64,000 nucleotides of DNA from an uncultured Candidatus Saccharibacteria bacterium. GTDB lineage: Bacteria; Patescibacteriota; Minisyncoccia; Phycocordibacterales; DAORIS01. Below are positions 8,966 to 55,038 of this stretch, one piece after another. How positions within the stretch are numbered: position 1 is the first letter of the stretch; each line of letters begins with the position of its first letter. Position numbers and translations under genes: made by a program. The DNA is taken from positions 104,881 through 168,880 of the forward strand of contig CAZXUH010000002.1 in NCBI GenBank assembly GCA_964644035.1, written 5' to 3'. The notes beneath the pieces are model-generated. The model saw nothing but the letters and a program-made list of their open reading frames with translations. It was not told the DNA's origin and ran no database searches.

Positions 8966-9478
8966 ATGAGCGTACCATCACAGAAAAAAGAGGCCTTTAT
9001 TAAGGCCTACGAGGAACATGCTGACAACTTATTCAGGTTTTGCCTCGTAAAACTGTCTCATAGGGATCAGGCCCTCGATACGGTCCAAGAAGTCTTTGCC
9101 AAGACTTGGCAATACCTCTCAAGCGGTAGCGAGATAGGGAATATCAAGTCGTTTTTATATACGACGGCCTATCATCTTATTGTCGACAGTTATCGCAAGA
9201 AAAAAAATGAATCCCTCGACTCGCTTCGGGAAGAAGGATTCGATCTTGCCGATGATCGCGGTGAAGTCCCTCTTTTATCTGTCGATTCGGAAAAAGTTCT
9301 CAAAGCGTTACACAAACTCGATGATAATTACAGAGAGATTGTAACAATGAGATACATCAACGAACTCACACCCAAGGAAATCGCCGAGGTGGTCGGTCTC
9401 AGCGAAAATGTTGTTTCGGTCCGCATACATCGGGGTCTTGAAAAGCTTCGAAATATGCTCAATATCACCAATGAATGA
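8966..9478 (+). CDS. ECF-type RNA polymerase sigma-70 factor
   Basis: Region 2 (FAKTWQYL ... YRKKK) and region 4 HTH (LTPKEIAEVVGLSENVVSVRIHRGLEKLR). Start taken at the internal Met after the upstream stop. Confidence 0.8.
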   Translation: MSVPSQKKEAFIKAYEEHADNLFRFCLVKLSHRDQALDTVQEVFAKTWQYLSSGSEIGNIKSFLYTTAYHLIVDSYRKKKNESLDSLREEGFDLADDRGEVPLLSVDSEKVLKALHKLDDNYREIVTMRYINELTPKEIAEVVGLSENVVSVRIHRGLEKLRNMLNITNE

Positions 9479-11187: not shown

Positions 11188-11997
11188 ATGGAACCAAAGC
11201 ACATAGCGTATAACAAGCCGATTCAAATCGCACTTCTCATTCTCTTGATTGTCGGCTGCGTCGCCAGCCTCAAGGGATTGGCATTCGGAAAGATGGGTAA
11301 GGGTAGTGCACTAGATAAGCCAACAATTGTTGTCTATGGTACGGGCGAAGTATACGCATCACCCGATGTTGCTATGGTTTCTTTTGAAGTTCGCAAGGAG
11401 TCAAAGACTGTTGCTGATGCTCAGGACCAGGTCAACAAGATTATGGCAGACGTAAAGGCAGGACTCATTGCAAAGGGTATTGAGGAAAAAGATATAAAGA
11501 CCCAGTACTACAGCACCTACCCAGTCTATGATTATGTTCAGACTCCAGCGGTATCATGCAGTCCCTCATATTGCCCTCCATCAGGACAAAATCAGGTTCT
11601 TCGTGGTTATGAAGTGTCACAGAGCATAGAAGTAAAGATCAGAAATATCGACACCAGTGGTGACATCATTAGTCTCCTTGGTACCAAGTCAGTTACAAAC
11701 ATCAGTGGTCTAAATTTCACAATCGACAATGAAGATGCAGTCAAAGCGACAGCTCGCCAGCAGGCTATCGATGAAGCCAAGGCAAAAGCTGAAGCTCTGG
11801 CAGATCAACTCGGCGTGAAGCTTGTCAGAATCGTCAACTTCAACGAAGATATCAGTCCTGCATATCCAATGATGTACGCTCGTGGTGGCGCAATGGATGC
11901 GGTCAAACTCGAATCAGCAGTAGGCAATCCAGCCGTCCTCCCAACAGGCGAGAACAAGATCATCTCCAACGTCTCTATCGTCTACGAGATCCGATAA
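11188..11997 (+). CDS. SIMPL/DUF541 family envelope protein (YggE-like)
   Basis: N-terminal anchor, then SIMPL-type repeats (ASPDVAMVSFEV..., YEVSQSIEVKIRN..., ARQQAIDEAKAKAEALA). Confidence 0.7.
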   Translation: MEPKHIAYNKPIQIALLILLIVGCVASLKGLAFGKMGKGSALDKPTIVVYGTGEVYASPDVAMVSFEVRKESKTVADAQDQVNKIMADVKAGLIAKGIEEKDIKTQYYSTYPVYDYVQTPAVSCSPSYCPPSGQNQVLRGYEVSQSIEVKIRNIDTSGDIISLLGTKSVTNISGLNFTIDNEDAVKATARQQAIDEAKAKAEALADQLGVKLVRIVNFNEDISPAYPMMYARGGAMDAVKLESAVGNPAVLPTGENKIISNVSIVYEIR

Positions 11998-18424: not shown

Positions 18425-20140
18425 ATGAAAGAAACACTCGAACAGGCATTTGAGGAAATTTTAAAAAAGCTCGGCATTGAAACTCCGAAAATAGTTTTGG
18501 AGCACCCTGATAATCTTGATTTTGGTGATTATACGACCAATGTCGCTCTTGCATACTCAAAAGATCTCAAAGAAAAACCTTTTACACTTGCTCAAAATAT
18601 AGTTGCCGAGCTCGAACATAAGAAAATTAGGCATGTAGAAAAAATATCAATTGCTGGTCCCGGTTTTATCAATATTTCTCTTGATAGAACATTTTTCGCC
18701 GAGGCAACAAAAGACATTCTTTCAAAAGCAGAAACATTTGGCAGCAATACTTCTAAGAAAGGCCAGAAGGTAATTATTGAATACACCAATACCAATGTTC
18801 TCAAGCCTATGCATATTGGTCATTTGATGGGCAATATCATTGGTGAATCGCTCTCAAGACTTTTTGAAAAAAGTGCAGCCGATCTCAAGAGAAACAATTA
18901 TCAAGGCGATGTTGGACTCAATATTGCAAAAGCAATATGGGGTATGCAGAGTCTGATGTCGGAAATGCCAAATGCAAAAGCTAGTCTTGCTGAGAAGACA
19001 CAATATATAGGCAAAGCATATGCAGCAGGTTCGGCAGCCTATGAAGATGATACACATGCTGCAGAAGAAATAAAAAATCTCAACAAACAGCTATTTGAAA
19101 AAAGCGATCTAGACATAAATAAGCTCTATGAATGGGGAAGACAGGCTAGCCTCGATCATTTTGAGGAATTGTATAAGAAGCTTGGAACCAAATTTGATTA
19201 TTATTTCTTTGAAAGCGAAGTGGCCGACGATGCGCTCAAGATTGTTAGAGAATATCTAAAGAAAGGGATTTTTGAAGAAAGTGATGGAGCGATAGTATTT
19301 CATGGAGAGAAATTTGATCCAAAACTGCACACTAGAGTATTTATCAATTCTCAAGGTTTGCCAACATATGAAGCCAAGGATATTGCGCATGCTCTTAGGA
19401 AATATAAAAAATTCCATTTCGACGAATCTATTATTGTCACCGCCAATGAACAAAATGGCTATTTCCAAGTCGTACTACGCGCTTTGCAGGAAATCGATGC
19501 TGATATAGCTCAAAAAACGCATCATCTATCACATGGTCTCTTACAGTTGCCAACAGGAAAAATGGGATCGAGAAAAGGCAATGTCATTACTGGAGAAGCA
19601 CTTATCAATGATGTAGAGGCTTTGGTAAAAGAAAAAATAAAAGACAGAGGATTTGGTAATGAAGAAGCAGAAGGGGTAGTAAGTAGCGTATCAATCGGTG
19701 CTATCAAATATTCTATTCTCAAACAATCACCTGGCAATGATATTATTTTTGATCTTGAAAAATCAGTCTCATTTGAAGGAGATTCTGGTCCGTATTTGCA
19801 ATATGCGTCGGTGCGAGCTGGTTCTCTGCTCACAAAAGCGCTTGAACAGGAAATAAAACCAAAAGTCGGTCTTGTTCCCGAAGAAGTAAGTATTGTAGAA
19901 AAATTGCTCTATCGTTTCCCAGAAATCGTGGAGCGTGCTCTCAATGAACGTGCGCCGCATTATATAGCACTCTATCTGACCCAGGTCGCCGGAGCGTTCA
20001 ATAGTTGGTATGGCAATACAAAAATTATCGATGCCAAGGATCCGTATTCTCAATACAAACTCGCTCTCACACAAGCTACAAAAAATATTTTAGACAGCGG
20101 ACTGTACTTACTAGGTATTGAAGTACCAGAAAAAATGTAA
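18425..20140 (+). CDS. argS: arginine--tRNA ligase (start at the Met directly after the dut stop)
   Basis: Class I motif PMHIGHLMGNIIGE, the ArgRS add-on N-domain and a DALR anticodon-binding C-terminus. Confidence 0.9.
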   Translation: MKETLEQAFEEILKKLGIETPKIVLEHPDNLDFGDYTTNVALAYSKDLKEKPFTLAQNIVAELEHKKIRHVEKISIAGPGFINISLDRTFFAEATKDILSKAETFGSNTSKKGQKVIIEYTNTNVLKPMHIGHLMGNIIGESLSRLFEKSAADLKRNNYQGDVGLNIAKAIWGMQSLMSEMPNAKASLAEKTQYIGKAYAAGSAAYEDDTHAAEEIKNLNKQLFEKSDLDINKLYEWGRQASLDHFEELYKKLGTKFDYYFFESEVADDALKIVREYLKKGIFEESDGAIVFHGEKFDPKLHTRVFINSQGLPTYEAKDIAHALRKYKKFHFDESIIVTANEQNGYFQVVLRALQEIDADIAQKTHHLSHGLLQLPTGKMGSRKGNVITGEALINDVEALVKEKIKDRGFGNEEAEGVVSSVSIGAIKYSILKQSPGNDIIFDLEKSVSFEGDSGPYLQYASVRAGSLLTKALEQEIKPKVGLVPEEVSIVEKLLYRFPEIVERALNERAPHYIALYLTQVAGAFNSWYGNTKIIDAKDPYSQYKLALTQATKNILDSGLYLLGIEVPEKM

Positions 20141-20175
20141 AAAAAGACCCGAGTCGGGGAAGACGACTCGGGTTA

Positions 20176-20305
20176 TTGCTGTACGGCCGGGCGAGCCGTC
20201 AGCGGGGGCAATGGGGGGTAGGAAGGAATGGGATTAAAAGATCGCCGGGGTGTCCCGGAGGGGGGGGAACCGGAACGGGGGAAACCCGGCGATCAATTCC
20301 GTAAA
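20176..20305. ncRNA. GC-rich structured element (candidate small ncRNA or cis-regulatory leader), identity unknown
   Basis: About 130 nt of roughly 70% GC in a roughly 40% GC genome. Contains a 10-bp helix (GATCGCCGGG...CCCGGCGATC) extended by GGAAT/ATTCC pairing, internal G-runs and an upstream 9-bp hairpin. The only ORF in it (20228-20410) is low-complexity and probably spurious. Confidence 0.4.
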
Positions 20306-20419
20306 GAACTATTTGATTACGCTTCTATTATACCATATTCATTTCAATATGCAAGGGGTTCTATAAATAGCAATAAAATGCTTACAAATATGAGAAAAAT
20401 GCTAATATAGCTATATTCT

Positions 20420-23400
20420 ATGGACACGGATGAAAAGAAAAAGAGCGCCGTAGCGCTCCGGGAAGAAGAAACTCTGGCTTTCTGGCAGAAGAATGAACTA
20501 TTTGAAAAAACTCTCAAAAAAGAGTCTCCAAAAGGCGAATATGTCTTTCTCGACGGGCCGCCATTTGCTACAGGTCTGCCACACTACGGTCATATACTAG
20601 CTAGTGCTATCAAAGATACGATTCCGCGTTACAAAACGATGCGAGGTTTCAATGTGCCTCGACGTTGGGGTTGGGATTGTCATGGTCTGCCTATTGAAAC
20701 GATTGTTGAGAAAGATCTCAATGTATCAGGACGTAAACAGATCGAAGAATTAGGGGTGGAGAAATTCAATGAACATGCTCGAAGCAAGGTTTTGACCTTT
20801 GTACATGACTGGAAAAAAACCGTCGATCGTATTGGTCGCTGGGTCAATTTTGACGGTGCATATATGACGATGGACAATTCATATATTGAATCTGTCTGGT
20901 GGGCACTCAAGGAATTGCACAAGAAAGATGCTATCTATGAAAGCACTCGTGTACTACCATACTGTCCGCGCTGTGAAACTCCAATCGCCAATTCCGAAAT
21001 AGCAATGGACAATAGCTACAAAGACATCACTGATATTTCAGTCTATGTAAAATTTGAACTCAAAGACAGACCAAAAACCTATTTATTGGCTTGGACAACA
21101 ACACCATGGACACTTCCTGGCAACTTTGCTCTCGCTGTTAATCCGGAACTGATCTATGTAACTGTCCAAGCAGAAAATGGAGAAAAATATATTGTTGCGA
21201 AAAGTAGATATGAAAAACTAACCGACAAATTTGTCGGCCATACAATTGTAAGTGAAGAAAAGGGAAGTATGCTTGTTGGTAAATCATATAAGCCCGCCTT
21301 TTCATACTTCACCAATACCGAATTTAAAAACAAAGACAAAGTCTGGAAAGTCTATGTTGCAGAATTTGTCACAGACAATGATGGTACGGGTATAGTGCAT
21401 ATTGCTCCAGGATATGGAGAAGACGATATGGCTCTGGCTAAAAAAGAAAACATAGCTTTTATTCATCATGTCACTACTGAGGGTAAATTTGCTTCTACAG
21501 CCACTGACTTTGCTGGGGAGCGTGTAAAGCCAAAAGAAGATCATCAGTCAGGTGATGTGCTTATCATTAAACATCTTGCCAAGGAAAATCTTCTATTTGC
21601 TAAAGAAAAGATTGTTCACTCATATCCGCATTGCTATCGCTGCGAAACGCCGCTTATTTACTACGCTCTCCCCGCTTGGTTTATCAATATTCAGAGTGTA
21701 AAGAAGCAACTGCTAAAAAAGAATGAAGAGATAGACTGGATACCAGAGCATCTCAAGCATGGTCGTTTCGAAAAAAGTATGGAAGGTGCGCCGGATTGGA
21801 ACTTTTCTCGAAATAGATTTTGGGCGTCACCTTTGCCGTTTTGGAAAAGTGCCGATGGAAAAGAATTGGAAGTGATAGGATCTCTTGAAGATCTAAAAAA
21901 GAAAACAAATAGAGGTAATACGTTTTTCTTCATGCGTCACGGTCAGGCGGAGAACAATGCTTCTAATACTCTAAATTCCACACCCAATACTTCGTATGGT
22001 CTTACCGATTTGGGTAAAGAGCAGGTCAAAGTGTCTGCACAACAGCTTAAGAAAAAGAAGATCGATGTTATCTACGCATCAGACTTCACCCGTACCAAAG
22101 AAACTGCCGAAATGGTAGCTCAGAGTATTGGCTATCCAAAAGAAAACATAATCTATGACAAAAGGCTTCGCGAGCTCGATTTCGGTGATCTCGACGGTAA
22201 GAATATTTCAGCATATAGAAATCTTTTCCCTGGGTATGAAGCCGCATTTGAAAAAAATATTCCAGGAGGGGAAAGTCTTCGCAATATCCATCGCCGAGTG
22301 GGGGATTTTATCTATCAAGCCGATGCCGATGCTCGAAATAAAAATATTCTTGTCATATCTCACGAAACACCACTGTGGATGTTGCAGTCGGTAGGTGGAC
22401 ACTTGTCGCAGAAGGAAATCATTGCTATGCGTGCAAGCGGGGAAGAGTTTATAAAAAATGGCGAACTTAGAGAAATTTCATTTGCTCGTATGCCTCACAA
22501 CGCTGACTATGAACTCGATTTTCACCGACCATATATCGATCAGATCTCATGGATGTCATCTTCTGGCAAGCTCATGACTCGTATTCCAGAAGTGATCGAC
22601 TGTTGGTTCGAATCAGGTGCCATGCCTTTTGCTTCAGAACATCGACCTTTCAATCCGGGCAGCACTCGACCGGCCGATTTTGTGGCTGAATATATAGCTC
22701 AAACAAGAACATGGTTTTATTACATGCATGTGTTGTCCGTGCAGCTTTTTGGACAAATACCTTTTAAACATGTGGTGACAACGGGTACGATCTTGGCAAA
22801 AGACGGACAGAAAATGTCGAAGTCAAAAAACAATTTCCCCGATCCATGGATTCTTTTTGATAAATACGGAGTAGACGCAATTCGATATTATTTGATGTCG
22901 TCACCGCTCATGAAATCTGAAGATCTCAATTTCTCAGAAGGGGATGTCGATAGTATTTATAAAAAATTAGTATTGCGTCTTGAAAATGTTCTCTCTTTCT
23001 ACGAATTGTACAAAGACGATTCTATACAAGCGGATAGCAATAGCGATGTGGTCATTGACCAATGGATCATTTCAAGACTCTCAGAAGTCCATGCCAAAGT
23101 GACAAAAGGTCTCGATGAATACGAAGTCGATGCTGCAATCAGACCATTTGATAAGTGTATCGATGATCTATCGACATGGTATTTGCGCAGATCTCGAGAT
23201 CGTCTTAAAGACGATACAAATATCGAAGATAAGAAAAAAGCTCTAGCCACAACCCGTTTTGTTCTTCTCCAGCTTTCGCATTTGTTGGCACCAGTCATGC
23301 CTTTTATCGCTGAACATATTTATCAAAAGACAAAAGATACAAAGCACGGCAAGGAAAGCGTGCATTTGGAAAACTGGCCTCAGGTTGCCGTGGATATTGC

Positions 23401-23863
23401 GTCGACTAAGATTCAAAAAATATTGGTCAATATGGAGACGGTCAGAAATATTGTGTCAGTTGCGCAAGATGCACGTGTCAAAGCAGGTATAAAAGTCAGA
23501 CAGCCACTCGCATCGCTCCATATAAAACAAACTCTTTCTGCAGAATATCTCGATCTTATAAAAGATGAAATCAATGTAAAGAAAGTAGAGGTCAATGAAT
23601 CTCAAGAAGGGGAAGTAGTGCTTGATACGACGATTACTCCAGAACTCAAATCAGAAGGAATCATGCGTGAACTATTGCGATCTATTCAGGACAAGCGCAA
23701 AGAAGCTGGTCTCATGCCGCGCGATATGGCGATAGTAAAAATCCCTCGCAATTCTGAAAATGAAGAAGTAGTCAAGACGTATGAGAAAAATATAAAAGCA
23801 GCTGCCTTTATCAAAGAAATTGCATTTGAAGATAGAGAAGATATATTTGTCGGGAAAATATAA
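20420..23863 (+). CDS. ileS: isoleucine--tRNA ligase carrying an in-frame histidine-phosphatase (PGAM-like) domain insertion
   Basis: HIGH-type PHYGHIL, CP1 editing region, KMSKS (KMSKSKNN) and an anticodon-binding C-terminus. Residues about 495-695 (nt about 21905-22500) form a histidine phosphatase fold: FMRHGQAENN ... VISHETPL. Confidence 0.9.
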   Translation: MDTDEKKKSAVALREEETLAFWQKNELFEKTLKKESPKGEYVFLDGPPFATGLPHYGHILASAIKDTIPRYKTMRGFNVPRRWGWDCHGLPIETIVEKDLNVSGRKQIEELGVEKFNEHARSKVLTFVHDWKKTVDRIGRWVNFDGAYMTMDNSYIESVWWALKELHKKDAIYESTRVLPYCPRCETPIANSEIAMDNSYKDITDISVYVKFELKDRPKTYLLAWTTTPWTLPGNFALAVNPELIYVTVQAENGEKYIVAKSRYEKLTDKFVGHTIVSEEKGSMLVGKSYKPAFSYFTNTEFKNKDKVWKVYVAEFVTDNDGTGIVHIAPGYGEDDMALAKKENIAFIHHVTTEGKFASTATDFAGERVKPKEDHQSGDVLIIKHLAKENLLFAKEKIVHSYPHCYRCETPLIYYALPAWFINIQSVKKQLLKKNEEIDWIPEHLKHGRFEKSMEGAPDWNFSRNRFWASPLPFWKSADGKELEVIGSLEDLKKKTNRGNTFFFMRHGQAENNASNTLNSTPNTSYGLTDLGKEQVKVSAQQLKKKKIDVIYASDFTRTKETAEMVAQSIGYPKENIIYDKRLRELDFGDLDGKNISAYRNLFPGYEAAFEKNIPGGESLRNIHRRVGDFIYQADADARNKNILVISHETPLWMLQSVGGHLSQKEIIAMRASGEEFIKNGELREISFARMPHNADYELDFHRPYIDQISWMSSSGKLMTRIPEVIDCWFESGAMPFASEHRPFNPGSTRPADFVAEYIAQTRTWFYYMHVLSVQLFGQIPFKHVVTTGTILAKDGQKMSKSKNNFPDPWILFDKYGVDAIRYYLMSSPLMKSEDLNFSEGDVDSIYKKLVLRLENVLSFYELYKDDSIQADSNSDVVIDQWIISRLSEVHAKVTKGLDEYEVDAAIRPFDKCIDDLSTWYLRRSRDRLKDDTNIEDKKKALATTRFVLLQLSHLLAPVMPFIAEHIYQKTKDTKHGKESVHLENWPQVAVDIASTKIQKILVNMETVRNIVSVAQDARVKAGIKVRQPLASLHIKQTLSAEYLDLIKDEINVKKVEVNESQEGEVVLDTTITPELKSEGIMRELLRSIQDKRKEAGLMPRDMAIVKIPRNSENEEVVKTYEKNIKAAAFIKEIAFEDREDIFVGKI

Positions 23864-27728: not shown

Positions 27729-27812
27729 TTGCTGTTGTAGATTATTTAAAAACATTTATAATCAACTTACCCCTGTGTCGAGATAACCTTTTTCACCGGA
27801 GGCCTCGATACG

Positions 27813-27850
27813 ACCCCCTGCGAACACGCAAACGCAGGGGTGTTTTTATT
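27813..27850 (+). terminator. intrinsic terminator after glyQS
   Basis: CCCCTGCG...CGCAGGGG hairpin followed by TGTTTTTATTT. Confidence 0.65.
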
Positions 27851-27920
27851 TATTAAATTTGCTATATTAGACAAGTTTCCTTTCAATGTGACAGAGAAGG
27901 ATTCTCTGATTCACAGGTTA

Positions 27921-27957
27921 AGCCCCACAATTCGTACTTGTGGGGCTCTTTATTTTT
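27921..27957 (+). terminator. second plus-strand intrinsic terminator (possible sRNA 3' end)
   Basis: GCCCCACAA-TTCGTAC-TTGTGGGGC hairpin followed by TCTTTATTTTT. Confidence 0.6.
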
Positions 27958-27990
27958 AAAAATAAGCCGCAGCATTTTCTGCTGCGGCTT
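27953..27990 (-). terminator. minus-strand intrinsic terminator for the small ORF 28003-28182
   Basis: AAGCCGCAGC-ATTTTCT-GCTGCGGCTT hairpin. On the minus strand it is followed by a T-run (the plus-strand TTTTTAAAAAT block). Confidence 0.55.
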
Positions 27991-28002
27991 TGTGCCGACG
28001 TA

Positions 28003-28182
28003 TTATTCACGTCGGGGTATCGGTTGTCTCATGTGTGGAATCCACAATTCATTCTCTTTGCCCACATTTCTTTTCTCACGAAGGACTCTTTCTGTACCTT
28101 CGCCGATTTTTATCGACGTGCGATAAAGCTTTTTGGTCAGCTTTCGCAATTGATTCAACTGACCCTTACTTGGTTTGGACAT
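28003..28182 (-). CDS. small basic hypothetical protein (59 aa, below the ORF-track cutoff)
   Basis: My manual translation: MSKPSKGQLNQLRKLTKKLYRTSIKIGEGTERVLREKRNVGKENELWIPHMRQPIPRRE. Lys/Arg-rich, with its own downstream terminator. I do not recognise a family. Confidence 0.35.
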   Translation of the reverse strand: MSKPSKGQLNQLRKLTKKLYRTSIKIGEGTERVLREKRNVGKENELWIPHMRQPIPRRE

Positions 28183-28263
28183 ACTGCTCCTTGTTTGCGT
28201 CTACTCGTATCCTAGACGCTTAGTATATAGCTGTCAATTTATCAAATATGCTACACTCAGCTC

Positions 28264-50839: not shown

Positions 50840-50867
50840 TTGACGCTCTGGGGGGTCTTGGTATATA
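50840..50867 (+). promoter_or_regulatory. strong sigma70-type promoter in the rRNA leader
   Basis: TTGACG, 16-nt spacer, TATATA, about 340 nt upstream of the 23S 5' end. Confidence 0.55.
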
Positions 50868-50950
50868 CTGTCTTTCACTTGAATATGTTGAACACAAATA
50901 GCCAAAGATTGAAGCGGTCCTAAGACTCCGGTCTTAGCTTTTGCAAAAAA

Positions 50951-50985
50951 GCCGCTTCAAAAAGCGGTTTTTTTGTTCAAAGAAT
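50951..50985 (+). terminator. terminator-like hairpin plus U-tract inside the rRNA leader
   Basis: AAAAAAGCCGCTT-CAAA-AAGCGGTTTTTTT. Preceded by a second hairpin CTAAGAC-TCCG-GTCTTAG at 50927-50946. Confidence 0.5.
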
Positions 50986-51741
50986 GTTCAAGTAAGACAT
51001 GGTCTTTGACAACTGAATCCTGCGACAATACTCAAACTCAAAATTTGAAATGGTGTCGAACACCGTATTGGACGCAGATTGAATTGATTGTAGGTAATTG
51101 AAGTTATATAAAATTTTCTCCTTGTCAGGCTAGTAACTTGGCGAGGGGGTCTTTCATTTTATGTAACAGGATAAAGTAGAATATAAGATTGTGGTTCTTA
51201 CATTTCCTAATAAGGAAATTAAGGGCATATGGTGGATGCCTTGACTCTACATGGCGATGAAGGACGCAGCATGGCGGCGATACGCTTCGGGGAGGTGCCT
51301 AGCAACCTTTGATCCGAAGATGTCCGAATGGGGTAACCCCTCTGTTAATCAGAGACGTACGCACATTAGCGTACGTGCATACCCAGGGAAGTAAAACATT
51401 TCAGTACCTGGAGGAATAGAAACCAATTGGTATTTCCTTAGTAGCGGCGAGCGAAAAGGAAGAAGCTCAAACTCAGCTCTCAACTTTGTTATTGGAGATT
51501 TATTTTTCCAATTCAAAGTTGATAGCTGGGGGTTGTAAGGTAGCAGCGTGATTTTTAAAATCAGAAAAGTTACAAAACAAATTGTTAGAAGAACAACCTG
51601 GAAAGGTTGACCATAGTGGGTAATAGTCCCGTATTTGAAAATAATTTGTCTTTTCAGTTGTTATTCTTGAGTACTTCGAGACACGAGTGGCTCGGAGGAA
51701 TCTGCCGGAACTAACCGGTAAAGCTAAATACATGTAGAGAT

Positions 51742-51778
<37 letters not shown>

Positions 51779-52353
51779 AAGCCCGGAAGGGCAGTGAAAT
51801 AGAACTGAAACCATATGTCTACAAGGAGTCGATGCGGGTATTTATATCCGCTACGGCGTGCCTATTGAAGAATGAGCCAACGAGTTGATGCATAGTGTAC
51901 GCTAAGGGCGAGAGCCTGGAGCGATAGGGAAACCGAGTGTTAATAGCGCGCCTATACTATTCATCAGACCCGAAACCAGAGCGAGCTAATTATGAGCAGG
52001 GTGAACTTCAGAGAAATCTGGAGGGAGGCCCGAACGGTTGAGCCGTGCAATACTCTCCGATGACTTGTGATTAGAAGTGAAAAGCTAACCGAGCCTGGTA
52101 ATAGCTGGTTCTCTCCGAAATAGCTTTTGGGCTAGCGTCATGTGTTCCCCTCGGGGGTAGAGCACTGGAAGGTCTCGACAGGGAGAAATCTCGCGAGACC
52201 TATCAAACTCCGAATACCGAGGATTAAAAGCGTGGCAGTTAGACTGTGGGGGCTAAGCTCCATTGGTCAAAAGGGAAACAGCCCGGATCTCAATTTAAGG
52301 TCCCTAAATCTATGCTAAGTGCACTTAAGGTAGTGTTTCGTCTATGACACTGA

Positions 52354-52385
<32 letters not shown>

Positions 52386-53189
52386 GAAAGCGTAACAGCT
52401 CACTCAGTAAGACGCGATGCGCCGAAGATAATCGGGGCTAAGCATAGTACCGAAACTGAGGATTGTACATTTTTTCGAATTTGTACACTGGTAGGAGAGT
52501 TTTCTTGTCTGCGATGAAGGCAAAGGGGTGACCCATGCTGGAGCGTCAAGAAGTAAGAATGTTGGCACAAGTAACCACAAGGTTTGTGAAAACCAAACCC
52601 GCCGAAAGAACAAGGTTTCCTTCGCGATGACAATCAGCGAAGGGTAAGTCGGGCCTAAGGCAATGACGAGAGTCGCAGCCGATGGACACACGGTTAATAT
52701 TCCGTGACTTTTATTGCAAGTGATGGGAGGACGGAGTGTAGTATGTATCGCGCATTATTGGATTTGACGTTCGTGTTCTGAGTGTGGCTTCCTGGCAAAT
52801 CCGGAAGCGGCCGCAAGGCGCACACAAGGAAAGCGAAAATGCTCAGGGCTTGCTCTGAGTAAATGATACAAAGCACGCTTCCAAGAAAAGTCTCTAAACT
52901 TATTGTAATGAAAACCGTACCGCAAACCGACACAGGTGTTCAGCTCGAGTAGAGCAAGGCGAACGGGTGAGGGGTCTCCAAGGAACTCGGCAAAAAAGCA
53001 GCCGTAACTTCGGAATAAGGCTTGCCTTCAGCAATGAAGGCCGCAGCTAAAGTATGCTTGGCAACTGTTTATCAAAAACACAGCTCCCTGCGAACTCGCA
53101 AGAGGATGTATAGGGGGTGACACTTGACCAATGCCAGAAGGTCAAACGTTGGCGGTGAGATTATATCAAGCTGACTGATGTAAGCCCTG

Positions 53190-53224
<35 letters not shown>

Positions 53225-53536
53225 TCTCTGTTGATACAGGTGTAAATATCTGGATGAACAGAGAAGGATTGGGGCTGTTATATGTTTGTGAATTGATAAC
53301 AAAAGGAGCCGTAATATGTCATAGAAAGAGGAATTAATTAAAAACGCTACCCTTCATGAGTGATCATGAAGTCCAAAACTGACTGTATGTGTACAATCTA
53401 CTTAAGATTGCTACGCAGGAAAGACTCGAATATTCGAAAGAATGATCGAGAATCCCCAGAGACCAGACGTCAGGCTAGATCGCAAGGTCTAGTAAGAAAG
53501 AGTCCATACTCAATAGCAATATTGAGCTTATAATAG
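53225..53536 (+). other. ORF-less group I intron in 23S rRNA at E. coli position L1931 (312 nt)
   Basis: Interrupts GGTCCTAAGGT|AGCGAAATTCC. The 5' exon ends in U and the intron ends in G. R-like (CAGAGACCAG) and S-like (AAGAAAGAGTCC) core elements are present. Confidence 0.7.
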
Positions 53537-54199
53537 AGCGAAATTCCTTGTCAGGTAAGTTCTGACGCGCACGAATAGTGTAATGACTGAGCAACTGTCT
53601 CGGAGACTCGCCCGGTGAAAATACAATACCGGTGAAGATGCCGGTTACCTGCAGATAGACGAAAAGACCCTAGAAGCTTTACTACAACTTGGTATTGAGC
53701 GTATGTTTTTACTGCGTAGCATAGAGGTGAGACTTTGAAGTTTCGTTTTCGGATGAAATGGAGTCGTCAGTGAAATAGCCTTCTGTCAAAATATACGTTC
53801 TAACCTCGAGGGAAAAAACCGCGAGAGACAGTATCTGGTGGGTAGTTTTAGTGGGGCGCTATCCTCCTAAAAAGTAACGGAGGAGTTTATTAAGGTCAGC
53901 TAACCGCGAATGGAAACCGTGGTAATAGTGTAATGGCACAAGCTGGCTTAACTGTAAGACGTACTTGTCGAGCAGATGCGAAAGCAGAACATAGTGAACC
54001 GACCATACGCGTTAGATGCGGTGGAAGATTATCGGACAAAAGCTACTCTAGGGATAACAGGCTGGTACTGCCTAAGAGTCCATATCGACGGCAGTGTTCG
54101 GCACCTCGATGTCGGCTCATCTTATCCTGGGGGCGGAGAAGCTCCCAAGGGTTTGGCTGTTCGCCAATTAAAAAGATACGCGAGCTGGGTTCAGACCGT

Positions 54200-54649
54200 T
54201 AAGGAGCTATTTAGATTGCTTCTTAAAAACAGTATTTTCGAAATGCACGCATAATTTTCTGTTGAAAATTTGCTCCTGCTCGGCCTCACGGCCTGTGCAA
54301 GGCATTTCTCAAACATGTTTTTAAGTTGTATAAATAGCGGCTCTTTAACAGTCTGAATCCCGAGGAAACTTTCACTAAACGTATTTCATGCATATTCATT
54401 TATGCGAGTACGTGATACCCAGAAGAAAGTCTGTTACTAACCATATTCACGGCGGTTATTCGAAGTAATTCGTATAACTCAAAACACAACTAATATCGGT
54501 AAAACCCGGGAGGGCAATACCGAGAGAACTCACAAATTTATTTTGTGAGGCTCGTAGAGACTAAACGTTGTGCTCCTCTGATTTCTATTAATATGAAGTT
54601 TGAGGATGAAGCTATAGTCCAATGCCCGGAGCAATCTGGGAAAAACATG
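54200..54649 (+). other. ORF-less group I intron in 23S rRNA at E. coli position L2593 (450 nt)
   Basis: Interrupts AGACCGT|CGTGAGACAG. The intron ends in G. R-like (GTAGAGACTAAA) and S-like (GAAGCTATAGTCC) core elements are present. Confidence 0.7.
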
Positions 54650-55038
54650 CGTGAGACAGGTTGGTCTCCTATCTACTGCAGGCGTTGATTCTTGAGGAGA
54701 TTTGTCTTTAGTACGAGAGGACCGAGATGAACTGACCTCTGGTCTGGGAGCTCTGCCGCCAGGTGGACCGCTCCGTAGCTATGTCAGGCACAGATAACCT
54801 CTGAATGCATCTAAGAGGGAAGCTGTCTCCAAGATGAGGAATCGTTTAGACTCCTGAGAGATGATCAGGTTGATAGGCACTAGGTGTACGCATAGTAATA
54901 TGTTGAGCCGAGGTGTACTAATAAGTCGATTCTTATTAGGAAATGTGTGAATTACATCTTACGTTAGAACTTTATCCTGTTACATGGAATGAAATTCCAT
55001 GAGAGACAGTATTTACAATCAATTTAGTATTTGAATTT

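Follow-up and report, generated by a model that had tools for sequence, protein, structure and literature searches.

The argS–ileS Locus and Its Host

The stretch of DNA analysed here (64 kb in length, referred to as the window) stems from an uncultured member of the Patescibacteria (Paceibacteria/Parcubacteria) and contains two neighbouring, NCBIfam-confirmed genes, argS (18377/18425–20140, with its stop codon at 20138–20140) and ileS (20420–23863, with its ATG at 20420), which are accompanied by glyA and dut on the upstream side and by recO downstream. The spacer between them accommodates a GC-rich island, and the GC maximum of the window is located at 20132–20313, where the GC content reaches 69% per 100 nt, versus a mean of 42% (sd 5.7%). 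The best non-self matches of the ArgS protein are metagenomic proteins of 70–75% identity; matches at approximately 60% identity and lower are labelled Paceibacterota, Parcubacteria or Patescibacteria, and the related genomes retrieved bear similar labels.

The island is base-for-base the same in two contigs from two further sequencing runs (L004 and L092), the latter showing 0 differences from the window over 4977 nt; hence, an assembly artefact is excluded. All available assemblies of the organism are 100% identical across the island, the ArgS cluster comprises a single distinct organism, and a search for strain variants that could reveal covariation, which is the customary evidence for a structured RNA, returned none.

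Composition and Structure of the Island

The original prediction described a segment of roughly 70% GC at 20176–20305; the elevation is real, but the measured value is 63.8%, and 69% is reached only as the 100-nt peak. The plus strand of the island shows a strong skew of G over C. The statement that GC spikes elsewhere in the window correspond to rRNA only does not hold, given that weaker spikes (0.58–0.62) occur also within protein-coding regions. Several structural elements had been proposed, all of which are present at the positions given—a helix between GATCGCCGGG (20240–20249) and CCCGGCGATC (20285–20294), its extension by GGAAT (20225–20229) and ATTCC (20296–20300), and G-tracts, among them a G8 run at 20260–20267. 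A hairpin of ACCCGAGTCG and CGACTCGGGT is located at 20147–20173 as proposed, but with a stem of 10 bp instead of 9 bp, closed by a 7-nt loop. Runs of five or more G residues are found 25 times over both strands of the window, with four of them being inside the island.

Both strands of the island are predicted to fold with high stability. The minus strand reaches −66 kcal/mol (z −6.5) and the plus strand −79.8 kcal/mol (z −6.0), and, in either case, 0 of 200 dinucleotide shuffles yielded an energy as low. Neither the window nor the contigs L001–L004 contain a second copy of the island or any similarity to it, and no terminal inverted repeats were seen to flank it. A reading as mobile element was rejected, since the flanking GTAAA is too short for a target-site duplication and no repeat copy is present.

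The Island Is Not a Leader of ileS

A cis-regulatory role upstream of ileS had been considered possible; the arrangement of transcription signals lends no support to it. The core promoter of ileS is predicted as an extended −10 element, TGCTAATAT, at 20400–20408 on the plus strand, 12 nt 5′ of the ileS ATG. The same motif is present at equal distance from the ATG in two of the closest relatives (L001, TGGTAATAT; L002, TGCTAGGAT) and in many relatives devoid of a T-box, where the layout aaaa-TGCTAnnAT-ATG recurs before ileS. With this promoter at 20400–20408, the ileS transcript would begin approximately 100 nt downstream of the island, which is thus, judged by these signals, outside the ileS transcription unit. 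A promoter-motif scan revealed no plus-strand promoter preceding the island. Furthermore, no plus-strand hairpin followed by a U-tract is contained in it, which implies that it harbours no attenuator. The genome is nearly devoid of Shine-Dalgarno (SD) sequences, so that the island does not qualify as a switch of the SD-sequestering kind either.

The T-box question deserves closer consideration, because many relatives possess such an element in precisely this place. A profile constructed with nhmmer from the T-box leaders of nine relatives detects ileS T-box leaders in 19 related Paceibacteria loci; these carry an AUC specifier, GGUGGUACCACG and a terminator. They resemble the island insofar as they occupy the same slot, the argS–ileS spacer, and are structured, locally GC-enriched and approximately 140–200 nt long; however, they are encoded on the strand opposite to the candidate RNA described below. 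The Rfam T-box model (RF00230) assigns 45.7 bits (E 2.6e-9) to the leader of one relative, which is below the gathering cut-off of 93 due to a truncated Stem I, and, hence, a scan at gathering level misses the T-boxes of these relatives. In the present case, the Rfam model gave no match in 19900–20600 at E up to 10, and the clade-specific profile, run with --max at the same E limit, matched nothing in the window. The T-box sequence GGUGGUACC, the context of an AUC specifier loop and a terminator/antiterminator pair are all absent from the window. On this sequence evidence, a T-box at the island is excluded. The locus is therefore a trap for annotation, where the island is not the ileS leader although many relatives hold an ileS T-box at that position.

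Transcription Signals on the Minus Strand

The original prediction had alternatively suggested an independent small RNA. This part gains support from a putative promoter and a U-tract terminator; however, both are located on the minus strand, which is opposite to the strand analysed at that time. A motif scan identified a perfect extended −10 element, TGGTATAAT, at 20327–20335 on the minus strand as putative promoter of a minus-strand RNA. It is preceded by a −35-like hexamer, TTGCAT (20349–20354, minus strand), which lies at a distance of 16 nt from the −10 hexamer and agrees with TTGACA at three of six positions. Weak −35 elements are usual among extended −10 promoters.

The extended −10 element is the usual promoter type of this genome, being found before ileS and the genes at 11188 and 29572, as well as in the rRNA promoter. 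The pattern TGNTANWAT occurs 20 times over both strands of the window; among these 20, the intergenic matches (TGnTAnnAT) lie 7–30 nt before start codons, and the match at 9338 is inside a coding region. Over 128 kb of strand sequence, the perfect form TGGTATAAT exists in only two copies, of which the second is located 30 nt ahead of the gene at 11188 and drives it; the chance of the perfect form occurring in a given 100-nt stretch is approximately 1%, as estimated from base composition. In the three closest relatives, from which the island is missing, the spacers contain no minus-strand promoter motif either.

At the opposite end of the island, the hairpin next to argS assumes the features of an intrinsic terminator when read on the minus strand (20139–20173). 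A 10-bp stem of ACCCGAGUCG and CGACUCGGGU, in which 7 of 10 pairs are G-C, encloses the loop UCUUCCC and is followed by CUUUUUUU, a U-tract that overlaps with the stop codon of argS. Only on the minus strand is there a tail of U7; the plus-strand tail reads UAUUGCUG, and, in this direction, the hairpin probably terminates argS transcripts as well, if less strongly. In the 60 kb scanned, terminator-like sites with at least 10 pairs and at least six G-C pairs number three. The other two of these strong terminators are found at the 3′ ends of transcription units in matching orientation, and one of them ends a promoter-bearing 59-aa gene.

A small RNA (sRNA) gene can be defined, in generic terms, as a promoter–terminator unit of 50–300 nt on one strand of an intergenic region. 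At the present locus, a promoter of its own and an intrinsic terminator delimit, by sequence signals, an intergenic unit of approximately 181 nt. Transcription would start from the extended −10 element TGGTATAAT on the minus strand and would end at the hairpin and U7 tract abutting the argS stop codon, so that the putative RNA gene would be divergent from ileS and convergent with argS. We favour the interpretation that the island forms the main part of an sRNA of approximately 181 nt that is specific to this lineage and transcribed independently from the minus strand; as the case is built on sequence signals, we give this interpretation an even chance of being correct. The sequence signals, the stable fold, the biased composition, the lack of an ORF, the absence of the island from relatives and the exclusion of a T-box or leader of ileS are established by the analysis, whereas that the RNA is made, its exact ends and its whole mode of action are what we infer. 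Counting against this interpretation are the weak −35 element and the fact that the closest relatives are devoid of the island.

Anatomy of the Predicted RNA

The predicted minus-strand RNA extends from approximately 20320 down to approximately 20139–20142, is approximately 181 nt long and is expected to fold into four hairpins. Its start, a G at approximately 20320, was placed 7 nt downstream of the −10 hexamer. The AU-rich 5′ segment (20295–20320, minus strand; RNA positions 1–26) would form a weak 6-bp hairpin only. It is followed by the large hairpin 1 (20240–20294, minus strand; RNA 27–81), which is predicted to consist of a 10-bp stem of GAUCGCCGGG and CCCGGCGAUC and a 7-bp upper stem, separated by the internal loop UUUCCCCC and capped by the apical loop UUCCCCCCCCU; together with the subsequent UCUUUUAAU, this hairpin may act as a weak internal terminator, to judge from its make-up. 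The upper stem includes one U-G pair, at which position the plus strand would have a C-A mismatch.

Next in the predicted molecule is a 36-nt pyrimidine-rich linker, UUUUAAUCCCAUUCCUUCCUACCCCCCAUUGCCCCC (20204–20239, minus strand; RNA 82–117), with a calculated unpaired probability of approximately 0.7–0.99, which, according to the folding model, is most likely the contact surface of the RNA. Hairpin 2 (20178–20203, minus strand; RNA 118–143) comprises a predicted 10-bp stem with one bulged A and the loop CGCCC; its closing U-G pair is a standard pair on the minus strand only, which brings the number of such strand-discriminating U-G pairs in the predicted RNA to two. The terminator hairpin corresponds to RNA positions 148–174, to which the U7 tract is appended.

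The base composition of the predicted fold is markedly partitioned. The unpaired bases amount to 43 C, 34 U, 16 A and 3 G, and the paired bases to 32 G, 28 C, 15 U and 11 A; thus, G is nearly confined to the stems.

Coding Capacity

No credible ORF was recognized on either strand of the island, which is also what is generally expected of an sRNA gene. The plus-strand ORF at 20228–20410, which had been noted as low-complexity, is present and fits that description. The sole minus-strand ORF begins with TTG (20296–20234) and would encode a proline-rich peptide of 20 aa, MIAGFPPFRFPPLRDTPAIF, from within the predicted transcript. None of the island ORFs matched Pfam. A spurious 60-aa ORF, called by one gene caller (in contig L092), was used for a search of 5.8 billion predicted proteins, a query chosen for reaching the Logan, ENA and NCBI assemblies, and returned a self match only.

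Distribution of the Island

At the argS–ileS locus of the three closest relatives (L001–L003, 70–75% ArgS identity), the island is absent. The spacer of L001 is AT-rich and comprises 180 nt, that of L002 contains an inserted ORF, and, in L003, the downstream gene is a different one. A further 80 argS loci from GTDB genomes were screened, and the argS–ileS pair was found to be syntenic in approximately 60 of 84 loci; the spacer between the two genes measures 1–2865 nt. The spacers of the clade contain small ORFs, T-boxes and unrelated elements, and the relatives likewise have a hairpin straight after argS. Since the hairpin of the present locus is situated where relatives have the argS terminator, its presence does not require a minus-strand gene.

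Similar GC-rich, skewed islands of relatives are nearly all coding. They were considered as analogues and rejected; the one in L054 is a small Cys-rich ORF and that in L065 an unrelated long hairpin.

A covariance model (R1) was built from the single island sequence and its structure. Run over 1.43 Mb (the window plus 83 related loci of approximately 1.36 Mb), it retrieved the self match only; a 16-bit match in L008 was dismissed as homologue, since it corresponds to the terminator of an ORF in convergent orientation. The JGI metagenomes were scanned with a pattern of exact loops and R/Y stems and with a pattern of the linker; each gave 0 matches. Scans of viral contigs revealed no homologue, and, of the 16-mer loci found there, the covariance model matched just a terminator-like hairpin. 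Blastn against plasmids gave no match, and, against phages, a 42-nt mycobacteriophage match (E 0.2, 23% of the query) that was taken as chance. As far as these searches extend, the candidate RNA is found only in one uncultured Patescibacteria species, with the proviso that homologues which are diverged and non-syntenic would escape both a model built on one sequence and scans for exact patterns. A young gene and an insertion of functionless DNA would both be expected to be absent from relatives in this manner.

Comparison with Known RNA Families

At gathering level, Rfam recovers 23S and 5S rRNA only from the whole window. The original prediction had found no convincing resemblance to SRP RNA, 6S RNA, tmRNA, RNase P or a T-box, and this is borne out—for the island region, Rfam lists none of these families even at E up to 10, and ARAGORN reports nothing. 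A 6S-like architecture was rejected also on structural grounds, since the predicted RNA has four independent hairpins and no rod, and its 5′ end, being AU-rich, is unable to pair with the GC-rich 3′ end. What Rfam reports for the island region at E up to 10 are weak matches to 6C, NsiR1 and ceN54 only.

The best of these is 6C (RF01066), with 21.3 bits and E 2.2 on the minus strand at 20139–20204, versus a gathering cut-off of 47; the match covers hairpin 2 and the terminator of the candidate RNA. The likeness is one of architecture only and concerns tandem G-C stems, loops with C-runs and a last hairpin that is the terminator, the corresponding loops of the candidate RNA being CGCCC and UCUUCCC, followed by U7. 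6C, which includes the 6C/B11 RNA of M. tuberculosis, is conserved throughout high-GC Gram-positive bacteria and binds mRNAs via its C-rich loops without the aid of chaperones (PMC6486639). Its hosts are Actinobacteria, whereas the candidate RNA is from the Patescibacteria, and its model has 75 positions, as opposed to the 181 nt of the candidate RNA, which, unlike 6C, would possess an extra large hairpin with two C-rich loops and the 36-nt C/U-rich linker. Since no homologues of the candidate RNA were found in the collections searched, common descent with 6C cannot be claimed.

Comparable designs are known from other phyla. The RsaE/RoxS RNAs of Firmicutes and the CcsR “cuckoo” RNAs of Alphaproteobacteria expose several unpaired C-rich or CCUCC-type loop motifs, have a promoter of the sigma-70 type at one end and an intrinsic terminator at the other, and pair with G-rich sites of mRNAs, which are mostly SD regions. 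The C-rich loops are common to these RNAs and the candidate RNA; however, the genome of the latter is essentially devoid of SD sequences.

Two further types of element were compared with the island. Like a bidirectional intrinsic terminator, the hairpin at 20147–20173, which immediately follows argS, has an A-run on one side and a tail containing U on the other; however, such an element would account for 35 of approximately 180 nt, and a dedicated promoter and three other hairpins would be left over. A plus-strand sponge of the CsrB/RsmZ type was rejected, because the GGA triplets on the plus strand of the island (eight, counted by eye) are near the expectation from composition (approximately 6.7, an estimate) and neither a plus-strand promoter nor a terminator is present. 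To our knowledge, no sRNA has been characterised in bacteria of the Candidate Phyla Radiation (CPR), and a survey of the literature on sRNAs in Patescibacteria brought up nothing relevant. The candidate RNA belongs to no known family and would be of the ordinary promoter-to-terminator type of sRNA gene, with C-rich loops.

Proposed Mode of Action

According to the proposed mechanism, the RNA would fold as four hairpins with G-C stems, thereby exposing C/U-rich, nearly G-free loops and the 36-nt linker. It would act in trans, with the C-rich loops and the linker pairing with G- or purine-rich partner RNAs by few strong G-C pairs, for which a chaperone would not be needed, as in 6C and RsaE/RoxS. 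Trans base-pairing is proposed on account of the C-rich-loop architecture, the weak 6C match and the chaperone-free pairing of 6C, and is, by this analogy, the mode of action that we consider most likely. Alternatively, the RNA may titrate a protein with affinity for C-rich motifs, or may have a cis-antisense or insulator role against read-through from argS.

The classical target of such RNAs is unavailable in this genome, where SD sequences are nearly absent; GGAG, GGAGG or AGGAG is found upstream of 0 of 59 genes, and an anti-SD mechanism was, accordingly, rejected. The −10-like boxes just before many ATGs suggest, as a matter of sequence, that leaderless mRNAs are produced. If the RNA is expressed, its partners would thus be other than ribosome-binding sites, and they might be sought among the G-runs that occur, if rarely, within rRNA or coding regions, or in a titrated protein of the KH-domain type that binds C-motifs. 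Considering that runs of five or more G residues are rare in the window, real G-run targets would be few. A scan of the window for duplexes with the linker yielded a best energy of −30.5 kcal/mol, which is no improvement on the −30 to −35 kcal/mol obtained with six shuffled linkers.

The further-reaching proposal that the locus specifies an expressed, recently evolved regulatory RNA of the CPR, on whose G-C scaffold five to seven single-stranded motifs rich in C would be displayed, is put forward tentatively, and we deem it rather unlikely. If real, the RNA would offer a testable candidate for an sRNA in an uncultured Patescibacteria symbiont with a reduced genome, a member of a group whose post-transcriptional regulation is essentially uncharted, and it would exemplify the emergence of the C-rich-loop design in a genome without SD-led translation. 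If unexpressed, the island would be a species-specific GC-rich insertion into a spacer, of little consequence.

Alternative Explanations

The last-mentioned scenario, a functionless lineage-specific insertion derived from a fragment of a GC-rich source or from the local expansion of G/C-runs within a spacer tolerant of insertions, in which the hairpin is simply the argS terminator and the −10 box a chance occurrence in AT-rich DNA, is the foremost alternative, albeit one to which we assign a minor share of the probability. It agrees with the fact that neither the closest relatives nor any of the collections searched contain the island, with the high plasticity of the argS–ileS spacer in the clade (1–2865 nt), with the hairpin that relatives, too, have right after argS, and with the target scan of the window, which yielded none. 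It has difficulty, however, in explaining how three perfect or near-perfect 10-bp stems and nearly G-free loops could have arisen without selection (z −6.5; 0/200 shuffles), and why a perfect TGGTATAAT, expected in approximately 1% of 100-nt stretches, is located precisely where a unit ending in U7 should begin; moreover, flanking inverted repeats and another copy in the window are lacking, and the phage and plasmid searches gave no significant match. A role confined to the locus itself, in which the island is a bidirectional terminator/insulator or a cis-antisense unit whose minus-strand RNA would pair with transcripts extending beyond argS, and that limits argS read-through into ileS or shapes the 3′ end of the argS mRNA, is considered improbable. 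The geometry of the hairpin, 6 nt past the argS stop and with an A-run and a U-containing tail, is indeed bidirectional; the weak plus-strand tail UAUUGCUG makes read-through plausible, the minus-strand RNA would find its perfect complement in any read-through transcript, and ileS has a separate promoter further downstream. Yet relatives manage with a single hairpin; neither the extra 130 nt of structure nor a dedicated promoter is needed for termination, and the plus-strand hairpins of the island have no U-tract. In a variant of this explanation, the C-rich, G-poor minus-strand RNA is also a Rho-loading site; such sites are normally unstructured, whereas the candidate RNA is mostly stem.

Function on the plus strand, be it as a 5′ leader or riboswitch of ileS, such as a divergent T-box, or as a GGA sponge similar to CsrB/RsmZ, is very improbable. 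Its appeal derives from the 19 related loci bearing an ileS T-box leader at this position, from the stable plus-strand fold (−79.8 kcal/mol, z −6.0) and from the eight GGA triplets of the island. The number of these triplets is, however, about what composition predicts (approximately 6.7), and the plus strand offers no promoter upstream and no terminator downstream, while the ileS promoter, conserved in relatives, lies between the island and the ATG; the Rfam T-box model and the clade profile both remain without a match in the window, although the leaders of the relatives are detected, and neither a GGUGGUACC box nor an attenuator is present. Least credible, and hardly to be expected at all, is a minus-strand unit that encodes the 20-aa proline-rich peptide MIAGFPPFRFPPLRDTPAIF. 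The ORF exists and is wholly within the predicted transcript, but it would depend on a TTG start with no ribosome-binding signal and has no Pfam match; furthermore, it coincides with hairpin 1, in whose 10-bp G-C stem the start would be buried, and the proline richness of its product is an automatic result of the C-runs.

ileS Leaders and Intergenic Units in Related Genomes

Among the argS loci of related genomes that were compared with the window, 19 loci of Paceibacteria carry a T-box leader of ileS (L009, L012, L028, L031, L033, L034, L035, L038, L041, L047, L051, L052, L055, L062, L067, L070, L078, L081 and L084; e.g., L035:11756–11925). In these leaders Stem I is truncated, whereas the AUC specifier, GGUGGUACCACG and the terminator are all present; in 18 of the 19 loci the leader is located upstream of an identified ileS gene, while at L081 the locus is cut by the contig end. 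With the Rfam model RF00230, the relatives' ileS leader reaches a score of 45.7 bits (E 2.6e-9); as this is below the gathering cut-off of 93, the leaders are missed by standard annotation.

In two further relatives, the argS–ileS spacer is occupied by a promoter-to-terminator unit of ~300 nt on the plus strand (L030:11870–12215 and L039:11775–12085). No ORF is conserved between these two units and neither of them is matched by either T-box model, i.e., RF00230 or the nhmmer profile built from the leaders of nine relatives; the L039 unit contains a T-box-like GGAGGUGGUACAACGG. Both units may represent a further, divergent leader class.

The dut–argS spacer of L065, a relative with 31% GC, is filled by a long, GC-enriched hairpin of ~80 nt (TTCTCTTCTTGAGAGG...CCTCAAGAGGAGAA; L065:5620–5715), which has no sequence relation to the GC-rich island between argS and ileS of the window.

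IleS Architecture and Translation Starts

The IleS protein of the window (1147 amino acids; 20420–23863) is interrupted by an inserted histidine-phosphatase/phosphoglycerate-mutase-like domain at residues about 492–670, and this His_Phos_1 insertion is shared with IleS of L001 and L002, two of the closest relatives.

Shine-Dalgarno sequences are nearly absent from the genome, with GGAG, GGAGG or AGGAG found upstream of none of the 59 called genes when all gene starts of the window are considered; one exception is AAGGAG at a small gene (28182–28003). Often, only 5–30 nt separate a −10-like box from the ATG, and this proximity suggests that leaderless or very short-leader mRNAs are widespread.

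Additional Elements of the Window

That small gene, on the minus strand within the region 27760–28240, encodes a basic protein of 59 amino acids and is equipped with a promoter (TTGACA-17-TAGGAT) and a strong terminator (27990–27964), both on the minus strand. Back to back with this unit lies a strong plus-strand terminator (27921–27947), and near 27835–27810, in sequence otherwise devoid of annotation, there is a further G-C hairpin (cccctgcg...cgcagggg).

The 23S rRNA (51209–54939) spans 3731 nt versus the 2925 positions of the model, so that insertions account for ~800 nt of its length. It has no adjoining 16S rRNA, and no tRNA was found anywhere in the 64 kb. Approximately 230 nt upstream of the 23S rRNA lies a plus-strand element (50840–50976). 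Its promoter, TTGACG-N18-TATACT, contains a G6 run in the spacer, and downstream of this promoter come hairpins and the terminator-like aagccgcttcaaaaagcggttttttt; the element may constitute a short leader or attenuator, or an RNA of ~100 nt.
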